Positions 6,200-60,325 of a stretch of 64,000 bases of DNA are shown in pieces; position 1 is the stretch's first letter; every line of letters starts with the position of its first letter. Where the stretch lies: positions 64,001-128,000 of IMG/VR virus record IMGVR_UViG_3300020048_000024; one strand, written 5' to 3'. Below the pieces are notes generated by a model, which did no database searches, was not told where the DNA came from, and saw only the letters and a program-made list of their open reading frames with translations. Position numbers and translations under genes: made by a program. Source of the DNA: a virus.

Positions 6200-9100
6200 A
6201 TGATAGACAAAGAAGAACTAATTCGTCGAAAGAAACTTTGGGAAGCTGGATATTGGGAAATTCCTGATAATCTAGATACTAGTAATTTTAATTTCGATTG
6301 GAGACCGTTTGAGTATGATCGCCCTTATATACATCAATTTGGCACTCAATGGCAAGAAATAGGCGGTCCGAGATTCATTGTTCCGGAAGACGAAGGCGTA
6401 AAATATCAATCAGATCAGCATGCAATAGTTATTGGAGTGATGCAAAACTGGAACGTATTAATTCCAATAGATGAATCGTTTGACTTTAAATGGAGTCCAC
6501 ATCCGCACGAGCCACCGCTAATATATGTATGGGGCAATCAGTGGAATGATGCCATTACTGAGCCTACTGTAGAGTATAGAATGCCGGGTGCTACTGATAG
6601 AAAGTACATGACTGATATGATTGCTACAGTTACTTCTACTACTGATAATTGGAAAGTATTAATTGATAAAGCAACAATTGATCAAAGTTGGAGACCTAAT
6701 CCATACGAGCCGCCGCTAATATATGTATGGGGTAATCAGTGGAATGACGCGGCTACTGAGCCTACTGTAGAATATCATGTAGCTGGTGCTACTGATAGAA
6801 AGTACATGACTGATATGATTGCTACTGTTACTTCTACTACTGATAATTGGAAAGTGCTGATAGACGGAGCTACTATTGATCAAAGTTGGAGACCTAATCC
6901 ATATGATCCCTCTTATATATATGTATTTGGAAATAAATGGAACGATGCAACTATTGAACCTACTGTAGAATATCATGTAGCTGGTGCTACTGATAGAAAG
7001 TACATGACTGATATTATTGCTGATCTGATCCCTGCTATTGACAAATGGAACGTGTTGATAGATGGCGCCAGCATTGATTTTAGTTGGAGACCTAATCCAT
7101 ATGATCCACCGTTAATATATGTATTTGGTAATAAATGGAATGATTCTGCTACTGAGCCTACTATAGAATATCATGCTGATAACGCAACTGATAGAAAGTA
7201 CATGACTGACATTGTTGCTGATCTTATTCCTACAATTGAGAAATGGACAGTGTCTGATACTGATCATCATGACATTTTTGATTTTAGTTGGAGACCAAAT
7301 CCTTTTAGTCCTCCTCAAATTTATCAATGGGAAAACAATGGACCGGTATATACCGAGTATAATGCTACTGAAATTGTACTAGTATCTAATGAAGATGCTC
7401 GATATAGCTATATTGACAAAGTTTCTAAATATTATATCACTACGACGTTAAATGACTTGATAGAGCAACATCCGAATGAGGTTTTTTGGGCATTGAACAG
7501 TGAATTGAATTATAATAAATTTGATTTTGATTGGTCTCCAAATTTAGAAAACTTCAGACATACTAACGTATTCGGAACATCACTGAGTAAAGATGTGTCT
7601 ACATATTACGTCAATGGACCGATGTGGGCAAAAGGATTTAGAGAATTTAATTACGTAGATTATGAACTTGACATTGTTACTGACATTGATATCTTTTATA
7701 TAGATAGAGGAAACAATACTGATCAGTACAAAGAATTACTGTTAAAATTTCCAAAATTACACAAAACTAGATTTGCTAACAGTTGGATTGATACTATTAA
7801 TCGTTGTATAAAAAAATCTACCACTAAGCTTATTTGGGTGTTAAGTAGCGACGTGGACTATAGTGACTTTAAATTTGACTTTTATCCGTCTGAATGGCAA
7901 CGAAAGATGATTCATATTTTTGGAACTCAGTGGTCTCACTGGGGTAATACTTATATGATCAACACGGAAACATTTGACATTGATACTAAGTATCTAGAAC
8001 AAATAGAACATGCTAAAAATATTAATTTTGTCAGACGCCGACGAGCAAAAATATCTCAGTGTTTAAACGACATTATATACATTGACTTTGGAAACAAATC
8101 TGATTCATTATCTCAATTGAAGACTAAGTGTATTGATAGAGAAATAACTATATTATCTTATGACTTAAGTTATGTAAACACGTTAACTCAATGGGCCAAT
8201 AGTAAAACAGATTATGAAATCAAACAAGAACATAATATGTGGGTTTGCTCTAGCTTGTGTGATTACGAAAATTTTGATTTTACATGGGATAGAGATCCAT
8301 ATCAGTTTAGTCAAATTCATGTATTTTCCAGCAAATTTGATAATTCTAAACAGAAATTTGGCGATACGTTTTTTATTAATTTACGTGAGTTTAGGAAAGA
8401 AAGTAATAGTTTAATTAAATTAGAAAATTATAGTGCTTCGGTTAATTATATTGGACATATATCCGTTCCTAGAATACAATGTCCTATATTATATCATGAG
8501 TATGATAGTCAAGCTACTGCTATTAATAATATTTCTGACAGAAATTGGCCATACTATGAATTGATTGTTAAAGATACAGTTACTAATAAACATAGTGTTG
8601 TGCCTAATATGTGGGACTCATCTGAATATGAGATTATCACTACTAGCACAGGATCATCTAGAATTTTTGTTCCAGATGTGGCAATTGATGTAATACATTC
8701 AGAAGTCTATGAGTATCCCAATCTGATAATATCAGAGCCGTTAGATACGTCTAATCCATTGGACATTGTATTCATAAGTAACGGTGAACCATCTGCCGAT
8801 AGTAACTATGAACGTTTATTAGAAATTGCAGCCGCTAATAAATTATCAAATCGTATTGTCAGAGTTAAAGACGTGAAAGGACGTGTCGCTAGTCAACACG
8901 CAGCCGCAAATGTAAGTCAGACTGCATGGTACTTTTTGATCAATGGTAAATTAGAAGTTAATACTGAATTTGATTTCAGTTGGCAGCCAGATAGATTGCA
9001 ACGAGCAAAGCATTATATCTTTAAGGCTATTAATCCAGTCAATGATTTGGAATATGGTCATCAAGCAATCGTAGCAAATAATCGAACACTTACCTTAGAT

Positions 9101-13564: not shown

Positions 13565-13593
13565 TTGACAATAATGATAAATATGTGTATACT
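13565..13593 (+). promoter_or_regulatory. sigma70 promoter with embedded late box, upstream of tmRNA
   Basis: TTGACA-17-TATACT with ATAAATA inside the spacer. Confidence 0.75.
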
Positions 13594-13599
13594 ATGTTT

Positions 13600-13930
13600 T
13601 TAAAGAATTGTTGTAAACCCTGAGTAATCAGGACAGAAGTAAAGAGAAAAGTGTTCAAGACGAGGGTTCGATTCCCTCCTTCTCCACCAAAAGTATACTG
13701 GTTCTCATCCACGTCCAAGAGTATGAGATAATAGTTGTGACGTACTTCCAGTATATTTCTGATGGGGAAGACCAGGTTTCGATTGGGCAAAGAGTAACGG
13801 AATGGACAACTCGACACAGATAGTCGTAAAAAGTAAACAACCAATAAAAGCAAACGAAGATAGCTTTGTAGCAGAACGCTTAGCGGCGTGATCACTACCG
13901 AGGTAGGAAATACCTTGTAACCAAAATCAC
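13600..13930 (+). ncRNA. ssrA: Circularly permuted (two-piece) tmRNA; tag (A)ANEDSFVAERLAA
   Basis: The 3' tRNA-like piece (GAGGGTTCGATTCCCTC CTTCTCCACCA, ends 13689) precedes the 5' piece GGGGAAG (13764); acceptor stem has G3:U70; stem-forming intervening segment; tag codons 13850-13891. Outer ends approximate. Confidence 0.92.
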
Positions 13931-13931
13931 C

Positions 13932-13958
13932 AAATAGGAACTTCGGTTCCTATTTTTA
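13932..13958. terminator. Bidirectional intrinsic terminator
   Basis: AAATAGGAAC-TTCG-GTTCCTATTT followed by T-run, between convergent units. Confidence 0.85.
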
Positions 13959-45457: not shown

Positions 45458-45471
45458 GCGATAGCCTCGTC

Positions 45472-45507
45472 AATCGATGACTAGAATTTTACTAGTCATC
45501 GATTTTT
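45472..45507 (+). terminator. Intrinsic terminator
   Basis: AATCGATGACTAG...CTAGTCATCGATT followed by T-run. Confidence 0.8.
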
Positions 45508-45538
45508 GCATGCAATGCCTGAAAAAGATAAGTACTAG

Positions 45539-59040: not shown

Positions 59041-59076
59041 AATGGACACACTCGTAAGATATGTGTCCATTTTTTA
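59041..59076 (+). terminator. Intrinsic terminator
   Basis: AATGGACAC...GTGTCCATT followed by T-run. Confidence 0.7.
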
Positions 59077-59159
59077 TTGACTGTAGTTACTAATTATGTT
59101 ATAATAGTTACATGCTGTGACTTTTTAAAATCACAACTATTAACTTAAAGGAACTACAA

Positions 59160-59426
59160 ATGAAAGTAACTCAACAATCACGTTTAACAGAAGCACTCTT
59201 GAATGGCGAACAACTGACTGTCCCACAAATGACAGCTCGTTTTAATATTGCCAATCCAACCGCAGTTATCAGCAACATTCGTTTTGCCGGCTACGCAGTT
59301 TATGCTAACACTCGTAAGAACAGCAAAGGTCAATCAGTAACTCGTTATCGTATCGGTACCCCTACCCGCAAAGTGATCTCTGCTGGTTATCGTGCTTTGG
59401 CCAACGGTTTGGTAGATTTAGAATAG
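59160..59426 (+). CDS. Winged helix-turn-helix protein
   Basis: LT..Q...RF.I.NP.A.IS.IR..GY followed by a beta wing. Confidence 0.7.
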   Translation: MKVTQQSRLTEALLNGEQLTVPQMTARFNIANPTAVISNIRFAGYAVYANTRKNSKGQSVTRYRIGTPTRKVISAGYRALANGLVDLE

Positions 59427-59428
59427 TC

Positions 59429-59565
59429 TATACTAAGAATTCCACTTAGTATATTAATCGTGAAGAATTCCACTACGCGAACTTAGGAGTATTCCACTCT
59501 GAATCGGATGACACACTCAATGTCTTGAATAGTTTAAGCGACACTATGGTTCGACAAGTCGCTTA
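59429..59565 (+). ncRNA. Candidate structured element: three hairpins with AG-WATTCCA-CT loops plus two further stems
   Basis: Different stems around near-identical loops at 59438, 59466 and 59490. Confidence 0.5.
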
Positions 59566-59592
59566 CTGAATAAAAATTAATGGAACTTAAAC

Positions 59593-59802
59593 ATGAAACA
59601 TAGTCTTGTTAAATTTAAAGACGGTACATTCGGTGTCATGAAGAGATATATATGGCTTTCTCGGGAAGAATTTTTAGGCGTAGACAATCATGAATGGTGG
59701 TCTATGCCTTATATGATAGTTAAATATTGCAAATTCAAAACTCAAGAAGAAGCTGAAGCTGCCATACTTTGTATAGACATTAGTTATACGGTGATTAAAT
59801 GA
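59593..59802 (+). CDS. Hypothetical protein
   Basis: ORF. Confidence 0.65.
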   Translation: MKHSLVKFKDGTFGVMKRYIWLSREEFLGVDNHEWWSMPYMIVKYCKFKTQEEAEAAILCIDISYTVIK

Positions 59803-60029
59803 ACGAACGAATTCGAGAACTTGCTGACAAGGCTACTACAAAATTCTTTAACGAAGACGGTAGCGGATTTCGTACATTCAGTCGTGAAAAGTTTGCAGAG
59901 TTGATTGTTCTGGAATGTGCAGGAGTTTGTTTAGAAAGAGCATCTCAATATCAAGTCAATCATCTTATAACTGATGAAGCGATATTTTGTTCGATTCGGA
60001 TTAAACAACATTTCGGAGTAGAAGAATGA
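59799..60029 (+). CDS. MNERI family, paralog 3
   Basis: MNERIRELA, EKFAELIV.EC, IKQHFGVEE. Confidence 0.8.
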   Translation: MNERIRELADKATTKFFNEDGSGFRTFSREKFAELIVLECAGVCLERASQYQVNHLITDEAIFCSIRIKQHFGVEE

Positions 60030-60325
60030 AAAGATTTACAGCATATAGAAAGAGTATCTCCGAGAGAGATACACACAATCATTTTCAGAAAAATGAAGAT
60101 CATGAGCCTCAGTTTGAGGGCGTAATTTGGACTGATGGTACAGTTACTCTTAGATGGTTAACTACTTGTTCTTCTCATTCTGTGTGGAGCAATATCGAGG
60201 ACTGTCTTAATATTCACGGTCATCCAGAATATGGAACTGAAATTATCTGGCATGATAGTGATCCACCAGAAGCATGGAACAAACAATTATTAAACGCTTT
60301 GAGTATCGAGAACAATAAAAAATGA
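60026..60325 (+). CDS. Hypothetical phage protein (EGV..TDG...RW...HGH)
   Basis: Coupled ORF. Confidence 0.7.
   Translation: MKRFTAYRKSISERDTHNHFQKNEDHEPQFEGVIWTDGTVTLRWLTTCSSHSVWSNIEDCLNIHGHPEYGTEIIWHDSDPPEAWNKQLLNALSIENNKK

Follow-up and report, generated by a model that had tools for sequence, protein, structure and literature searches.

A candidate RNA motif of stem-variable, loop-conserved hairpins downstream of a winged-helix gene in freshwater T4-type jumbo phages

Tandem hairpins with different stems and nearly identical seven-nucleotide loops, lying directly behind a small winged-helix (wHTH) gene of a phage, could represent a folded part of the message whose loops are read by a factor, a structure formed by the DNA itself, or hairpins whose loops are read by nothing. 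We addressed this question at a locus in a 64,000-nucleotide stretch of DNA, referred to here as the window, which covers bases 64001-128000 of a 159,889-bp IMG/VR virus record. The record is A+T-rich (37% G+C), and its CheckV completeness of 45% implies a phage genome of ~350 kb; the sequencing runs containing the locus are freshwater or aquatic metagenomes. The phage carries a tmRNA (window 13586-13958, plus strand; Rfam beta_tmRNA 97 bits, tmRNA_permuted 103 bits) and many near-consensus sigma-70 promoters, several of them within repeated PeSL-type terminator-promoter cassettes (window 15293, 43392, 43600 and 57511, plus strand; record 158875-159887, minus strand). Each repeat is laid out as a hairpin (TGTTGT..ACAACA), a T-run, TTGACA, a near-identical 17-nt spacer and TATAAT, and its conserved 5' leader ends in AAAGGAAG ahead of ATG. 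PeSL terminator-promoter cassettes are known from T4-type phages (PMC4122927).

The locus lies in a simple transcription unit. A spacer of 166 nt (59427-59592) separates the 88-aa wHTH gene (59160..59426) from a 69-aa ORF (59593-59802), both on the plus strand. Ahead of the wHTH gene are the intrinsic terminator of the preceding metallophosphoesterase gene (59042..59075, plus strand; a 9-bp stem and T-run recognized from sequence) and a strong sigma-70-type promoter (59077..59105, plus strand; TTGACT, 17 nt and TATAAT with TG), which has 11/12 consensus matches and is conserved in relatives. This terminator-promoter unit is kept in all related loci, with covarying terminator stems in 13 of them. 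The 5' UTR of the wHTH mRNA contains a hairpin, TGTGA/TCACA (59116..59135, plus strand), identified from the sequence and from relatives. It occupies the same place in 13 loci, and because its stem covaries and its loop is not conserved, it is an RNA hairpin and not an operator; TGTGA-N10-TCACA, which had the look of an operator, was accordingly rejected as the local form of this hairpin. After it comes a highly conserved ribosome-site region, ACTTAAAGGAA.T..AA ATG.

The wHTH product matches Pfam HTH_39 (E 7.6e-5) and belongs to PHROG 4973, whose function is unknown. Its AF2 model (pLDDT 89.9) has three helices, a beta wing and a C-terminal helix (H-H-H-wing-H), and the nearest solved folds, at weak E-values, are ArsR, PadR, MarR and TFE-type domains; a PDB sequence search with the wHTH profile found nothing below E 0.2. 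As modeled, the protein is a winged helix of generic dsDNA-type fold. An earlier reading of this DNA from its sequence only had placed the hairpins downstream of a wHTH gene, and Pfam and AF2 agree on the winged helix of the gene that directly precedes them. Two exact contigs from a freshwater metatranscriptome (59128-59213 and 59184-59274) cover the 5' part of the wHTH gene, with none over the hairpins; they begin shortly after the point where the wHTH mRNA is predicted to start, and could also reflect carry-over of DNA.

Gene order among related loci is constant through the metallophosphoesterase gene, the wHTH gene and the spacer, with MazG and dCMP deaminase genes further downstream, and the gene right after the element varies among close relatives, being the 69-aa ORF, a Phage_VG64 gene, MazG or a 74-aa ORF. 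Beyond the spacer, many metagenome contigs from several runs match only two short pieces (59799-59835 and 59886-60034), at high depth, and then diverge, which suggests short conserved modules that sit where small ORFs begin and are common to many different phages.

All five stems claimed by the sequence-only reading between 59429 and 59565 were located, each on the plus strand. Hairpin 1 (59429..59453) begins 3 nt past the wHTH stop codon and has a 9-bp stem and the loop AAUUCCA. Hairpin 2 (59458..59480) has the same loop on 8 stem positions, which include one A.A and one U.G; these become A-U in L164 and U-A in L071, respectively. Hairpin 3 (59483..59503) presents the loop UAUUCCA on 7 stem positions with one G.U and one A.G, and within them is a 4-bp core stem whose G.U is A-U in L164. 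The smaller hairpin 4 (59510..59524) consists of GACA/TGTC, 4 bp, around a 7-nt loop; a small hairpin of other sequence is weakly suggested at this position in L081, L024 and L043. The fifth stem belongs to a terminal element (59528..59565), and an A+U-rich unstructured linker (59566..59592) then reaches the next start codon at 59593. Contigs of one DNA run stop at 59411 and restart at 59455, on either side of hairpin 1. Assembly breaks are usual at palindromes.

Exact copies of AGWATTCCACT number three in the 64-kb window, all within the hairpins at 59429-59503, and with one mismatch allowed there are 9 matches in the window against 3.1 expected, a count reached in 0 of 100 shuffles. The full 160-kb record contains one further exact copy, which lies in a coding region and has no stem. 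A 181-nt stretch around the array folds no better than its shuffles on either strand (z -1.1), and support for the element therefore rests on comparison with relatives.

For this comparison, regions downstream of wHTH genes were gathered from IMG/VR, from JGI metagenome contigs and from contigs encoding close homologues. The element follows the orthologous wHTH gene in 15 loci besides the window, all on related phage contigs. Three hairpins are present in L071/L072, L164 and L006 (98%, 81% and 83% protein identity to the window, respectively), two in L081 (79%), and one in L085 (69%), in L024/L075 (73%) and in L044 and L043 (61%), so that the number of heptaloop hairpins among element-bearing loci ranges from 1 to 3. 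Four loci at 83-92% identity (L005, L007, L023 and L073) have one hairpin whose loop is the exact reverse complement, and L074 and L077/L078 (85-87%) have one hairpin with loops of 10 and 8 nt. In ~100 further homologous loci a plain intrinsic terminator stands behind the wHTH gene, or else a promoter in a long palindrome and then structured RNA and an apparent tRNA gene. The palindrome arrangement characterizes a more distant clade (L008, L036-L042, L045-L050 and L053), in which a TTGACA-17-TATAAA promoter lies within an 11-bp palindrome after the wHTH gene and is followed by a hairpin, a variable structured stretch of ~100 nt and a gene that looks tRNA-like by eye.

When four whole phage records were searched with a covariance model of the hairpin, the only matches were these hairpins and one terminator (window 45471-45503), and because, this terminator aside, the matches are confined to the locus, the motif is local and not a dispersed repeat like REP or PeSL. 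We rejected the 45471-45503 hairpin as a second element, since it is an ordinary terminator whose stem is kept and whose loop drifts in an orthologue. This intrinsic terminator (45471-45508, plus strand; 13-bp stem) lies between the gene for a 145-aa basic protein and a ClpX-like gene, and its likeness to the heptaloop hairpins arose by chance. A blastn search of the locus against the GenBank phage collection gave no match. Scanning IMG/VR for a two-hairpin pattern returned 12 loci, one of them a true relative. Another, L011, was rejected as a second family because it is the antisense of a group I intron: on this unrelated contig, positions 6718-7065 hold a group I intron-like sequence between two genes (Rfam E 7e-9, below gathering). 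The remaining loci from the scan were tandem repeats or coding sequence. We regard the hairpins as a candidate new RNA motif or family, limited, as far as could be seen, to one clade of freshwater T4-type jumbo phages.

Twenty copies of the hairpin from 10 loci were aligned in register, and pairs were counted on the 7 inner positions. Standard pairs fill 86.4% of the cells, compared with 60.9% in shuffles, and the covariation score is 0.768 versus 0.276, with 0 of 500 shuffles reaching 0.768. When the partner was slid by 1-3 columns, the score was only 0.11-0.17. All 7 stem pairs vary on both sides. The loop, in contrast, follows the consensus NAUUYYA; its positions 2, 3, 4 and 7 (A, U, U and A) are invariant in the 20 copies, with 90% conservation at position 6 and in the G-C closing pair. 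The earlier observation in the window, that the stems differ yet pair while the loops and the closing AG/CT are kept, extends across these copies. Covariation among homologous loci had been proposed as one check on the array, and it proved strong and went together with loop conservation; the contrary outcome, related phages with neither, was not seen. A double-stranded DNA operator for a dimeric protein would be expected to show the opposite pattern, with conserved arms and a free center.

The substitutions also point to the strand that folds. Stems of the window and L006 differ solely by transitions, which in hairpin 1 comprise three double compensatory changes and one wobble, and among close relatives single-step stem changes run from G.U to A-U, from A.A to A-U and from G-C to G.U. 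Read on the plus strand, 18 hairpins contain 110 Watson-Crick pairs, 10 G.U pairs and 3 A.C pairs, and of the three A.C pairs one is due to a bulge and one is in the clade with inverted loops. This excess of G.U over A.C agrees with the earlier suggestion that G-U pairs favor the plus strand and identifies the folding strand as the mRNA-sense strand.

Conservation of the spacer is consistent with selection. Between the window and L164 the spacer is 94.1% identical, compared with 75.7% for the wHTH gene and 79.0% for the next ORF, and in the inverted-loop clade the spacers are nearly identical and the proteins up to ~15% different. These identities point to purifying selection, possibly with recombination, acting on the non-coding spacer, and the 94% conservation relative to L164 could in part be a recombination patch. 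The canonical loop is kept at 61% as well as at 98% protein identity, across stems that have fully turned over, and its presence in both the most distant and the closest element-bearing loci indicates that it is ancestral and long maintained. The free loop of the 5' UTR hairpin in the same mRNA shows that loop conservation is specific to the 3' hairpins. We conclude that comparative sequence analysis confirmed the hairpin array as real, evolutionarily conserved, selected and folded on the sense strand.

We were concerned about the loci in which the loop is not canonical. L073 and L044 share a stem (CGAG with CTCG), but in L073 the loop sequence is the common one in exact reverse complement; between L005 and L073 there is a compensatory change in the closing region. 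The inverted loop is, judged from this comparison, the signature of a minute hairpin-loop inversion, a mutational event at the DNA level. In the inverted-loop clade only, the flipped loop forms a -35-like hexamer with a perfect TATAAT 18 nt after it, and this 10/12 site has a predicted start at the terminal element. Apart from this site, a sigma-70 promoter inside the terminal element was rejected for want of acceptable spacing. Because the loop is inverted in L005, L007, L023 and L073 and altered in L074 and L077, some lineages can do without the sense-strand loop, and any model in which the loop is essential becomes less credible.

The terminal element, which is strongly conserved, consists of AATAGT, a covarying stem, CACTAT and an A-rich loop end. 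AATAGT at 59528-33 and CACTAT at 59542-47 are invariant, and across loci the layout is AATAGT, 1-2 nt, an arm of 6-8 nt, a loop of 11-16 nt ending in A's, and the complementary arm. In the window the terminal stem (59535-59565) pairs 59535-42 with 59558-65 over 8 bp, so that the 5' arm ends on C59542 of CACTAT and the loop begins with ACUAU. Four quite different versions of this stem occur among the loci, all fully complementary and with plus-strand G.U pairs. The invariant words are complementary to each other, AUAGU with ACUAU (59529-33 with 59543-47); relative to the covarying stem they are arranged as in an H-type pseudoknot, and the loop lengths are feasible. The words that would form stem 1 are invariant in 13 loci, and L085 has GUAGU/ACUAC, a single case of one compatible double change. 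It is possible that the terminal element folds as an H-type pseudoknot. In most loci it ends ~20-27 nt ahead of the next start codon, whatever gene follows.

Searches for a known identity gave no fit. An Rfam search, also proposed earlier, was run with gathering thresholds on the window and with E-values up to 10 on the region and eight related loci; it returned nothing at the element, and no described family fits. No intrinsic terminator was predicted in 59427-59592, and no T-run follows any of the five stems. Pairing of the loops with the Shine-Dalgarno region of the next gene or of the wHTH gene was rejected, as it reaches only 4-5 bp and neither L006 nor the single-hairpin loci conserve it. 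The T4 late-promoter word was rejected too; TATAAATA is rare in the record, with 7 plus 4 copies. Compared by eye in their usual forms, tRNA anticodon or T-loop mimicry, the DnaA box, the MotA box, RegB sites and the RNase E consensus each failed to fit all loop variants.

The reading we favor, at a probability of roughly 45%, is that the early wHTH transcript carries the array as a cis-acting RNA module and that its loops are putative sites for a factor. Covarying stems with conserved loops are the pattern expected of hairpins recognized by their loops; the genes are co-oriented behind a strong promoter with no terminator in the spacer, and in the four phage records searched with the covariance model the element is found only behind the wHTH gene. 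The inverted or altered loops in some clades and a region no more stable than its shuffles count against it. The transcript from the strong promoter would carry a folded module of one to three tandem hairpins, each showing an N-A-U-U-Y-Y-A heptaloop on a G-C closing pair, then the small hairpin and finally, ~20-27 nt ahead of the next start codon, the terminal hairpin, which may be a pseudoknot. The identical loops would be repeated docking sites for one trans-acting RNA-binding protein of the phage or its host, and loop occupancy would set the fate of the transcript, whether through 3' stability of the wHTH message, processing between the cistrons or access to the next start. We infer that the molecule is RNA rather than plus-strand single-stranded DNA, that a factor binds the loops and that binding has such effects. 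A more specialized role, which we consider distinctly improbable, is that of a multivalent RNA decoy in the early mRNA that titrates a host RNA-binding defense or regulatory protein, such as a loop-specific endoribonuclease. Copy number (1 to 3) would then evolve fast under conflict, and the clades with inverted or altered loops would have lost the need for the decoy. Such evolution would parallel that of pseudo-ToxI repeats, which expand in phages that escape ToxIN.

Several other explanations had to be weighed against this cis-acting module. The hairpins could be structural only, protecting the 3' end of the wHTH mRNA or insulating the cistrons, with loops that are read by no factor and resemble one another through shared ancestry, a bias towards 7-nt loops rich in A+U, and recombination. 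More distant orthologous loci have ordinary intrinsic terminators in the same position, the hairpin persists where the loop is inverted or altered, and the terminator elsewhere in the phage has a chance-similar loop that drifts in its orthologue. We nevertheless hold a purely structural role to be unlikely, given loops that stay constant from 61% to 98% protein identity despite complete stem turnover, three paralogous hairpins of one locus that share the same loop, and a 5' hairpin of the same mRNA without loop conservation. The strict adjacency of gene and element in 16 loci would also suit an autoregulatory RNA operator, in which the wHTH protein binds the hairpins of its own mRNA; HTH proteins that bind RNA hairpins of their own operon have been published (PMC13551039). 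However, the recognition helix is the same in the window, where the loop is canonical, and in L005, where it is inverted, and another helix is found both in L006 (canonical) and in L007 (inverted). The helix is, moreover, conserved in hundreds of homologues that lack the hairpins and have plain terminators behind their genes; recognition by Aca proteins is through the helical stem, here the variable part, and the fold is a generic dsDNA-type wHTH. Together these points make autoregulation through the hairpins quite improbable.

We give similarly little credence to an element that works at the DNA level, whether as plus-strand single-stranded or cruciform hairpins in replication priming, nicking or recombination, or as a hot spot of gene exchange. 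Its appeal is that G.T pairs stabilize DNA hairpins too, that inversion of the loop with the stem kept is a DNA-level event, that close relatives carry different genes immediately after the element and that DNA assemblies break at hairpin 1. The sequence-only reading had offered an origin with single-stranded DNA hairpins as one option, and the sequence gave an origin no support, with use as single-stranded DNA still conceivable: cumulative GC skew climbs steadily across the region with no inflection, an A+T-rich unwinding stretch is absent, no gene for an initiator or HUH protein lies nearby, and the element is a single locus per genome between co-oriented genes, fixed in position relative to the stop and start codons. 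The covarying hairpin in the 5' UTR of the wHTH gene also speaks against a role in DNA. Very doubtful, finally, is a small RNA of its own that would serve as sponge or decoy, titrating an RNA-binding protein or a nuclease. Repeated identical loops and a copy number of 1 to 3 among relatives would fit such an RNA, as would a weak promoter-like site that, in the window and in L071, ends 3 nt short of the stop codon. However, this site is not conserved in the other loci, there is neither a terminator nor an Rfam match, and the binding sites are too few for a sponge.

Few structured RNAs have been described from large uncultivated phages, and the comparative support for this one is unusually clean, in that the stems turn over fully around a fixed loop, the copy number varies, one clade has undergone a natural inversion of the loop and a pseudoknot is possible. 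The element lies in a simple early transcription unit that could be rebuilt in a plasmid. If a factor does read the loop, the two would form a new pair in RNA-protein recognition, and T4-type phages would have a control element located on the 3' side; if none does, it is a well-documented case of hairpin evolution.

Among known systems, the sponge RNAs CsrB, RsmY and RsmZ carry GGA (ANGGA) in many hairpin loops, in ~20 copies. The array resembles sponge RNAs of the CsrB/RsmZ type in that several hairpins show the same short loop motif, and the sequence-only reading had proposed such an architecture. We discarded the likeness to CsrB, because the heptaloops lack GGA, the hairpins number 1-3 and lie within an operon without a conserved promoter or terminator of their own, and Rfam found nothing; on the minus strand GGA occurs solely in the CC variant of the loop and is lost in the UC and CU variants. 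Lambda nutR, which combines boxA with a boxB hairpin bearing a GNRA-like pentaloop, serves N-type antitermination and follows the small HTH gene cro. It is likewise a loop-specific hairpin directly after a small early HTH regulator gene, with the transcript continuing downstream, but the loop here has 7 nt, there are 1-3 copies, the phage is not lambdoid, and no boxA-like conserved linear word was found between the stop codon and the hairpins. The T-even gene 32 pseudoknot has a 5-bp stem 1, a loop 1 of 1-2 nt, a stem 2 of 6-8 bp and an A-rich last loop. The possible geometry of the terminal element, followed by an unstructured A+U-rich leader to the start codon, is like that of this autoregulatory pseudoknot; there is, however, no sequence likeness, stem 1 is invariant except for the one change in L085, and the gene that follows is variable and does not encode an ssDNA-binding protein.

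PeSLs share with the array the character of a conserved intergenic cassette beside variable genes in a T4-type phage (PMC4122927), but they are dispersed and multi-copy and have a conserved stem joined to an early promoter, whereas the heptaloop element is single-copy with a conserved loop and no conserved promoter. With variable stems and one locus in four phage records, it was rejected as a PeSL cassette; PeSL-like cassettes sit elsewhere in the phage. TIGR-Tas arrays alternate edge and loop repeats around two 9-nt spacers and lie beside a Tas gene with a Nop domain (PMC12045711). Short conserved loops between variable 9-nt segments gave the hairpins a likeness to such arrays, which we rejected because edge repeats are missing and the variable arms, unlike TIGR spacers, can pair with one another; no Nop domain was found in the 160-kb record, which represents ~45% of the genome. 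Aca2 and Aca1 are phage HTH regulators of anti-CRISPR operons that bind hairpins in the mRNA of their own operon (PMC13551039). There, as here, a phage HTH regulator gene is accompanied by conserved, covarying hairpins in its own mRNA, but the Aca motifs lie in the 5' UTR and are read through the stem, whereas the hairpins described here lie 3' of the gene, with the stem free and the loop fixed.
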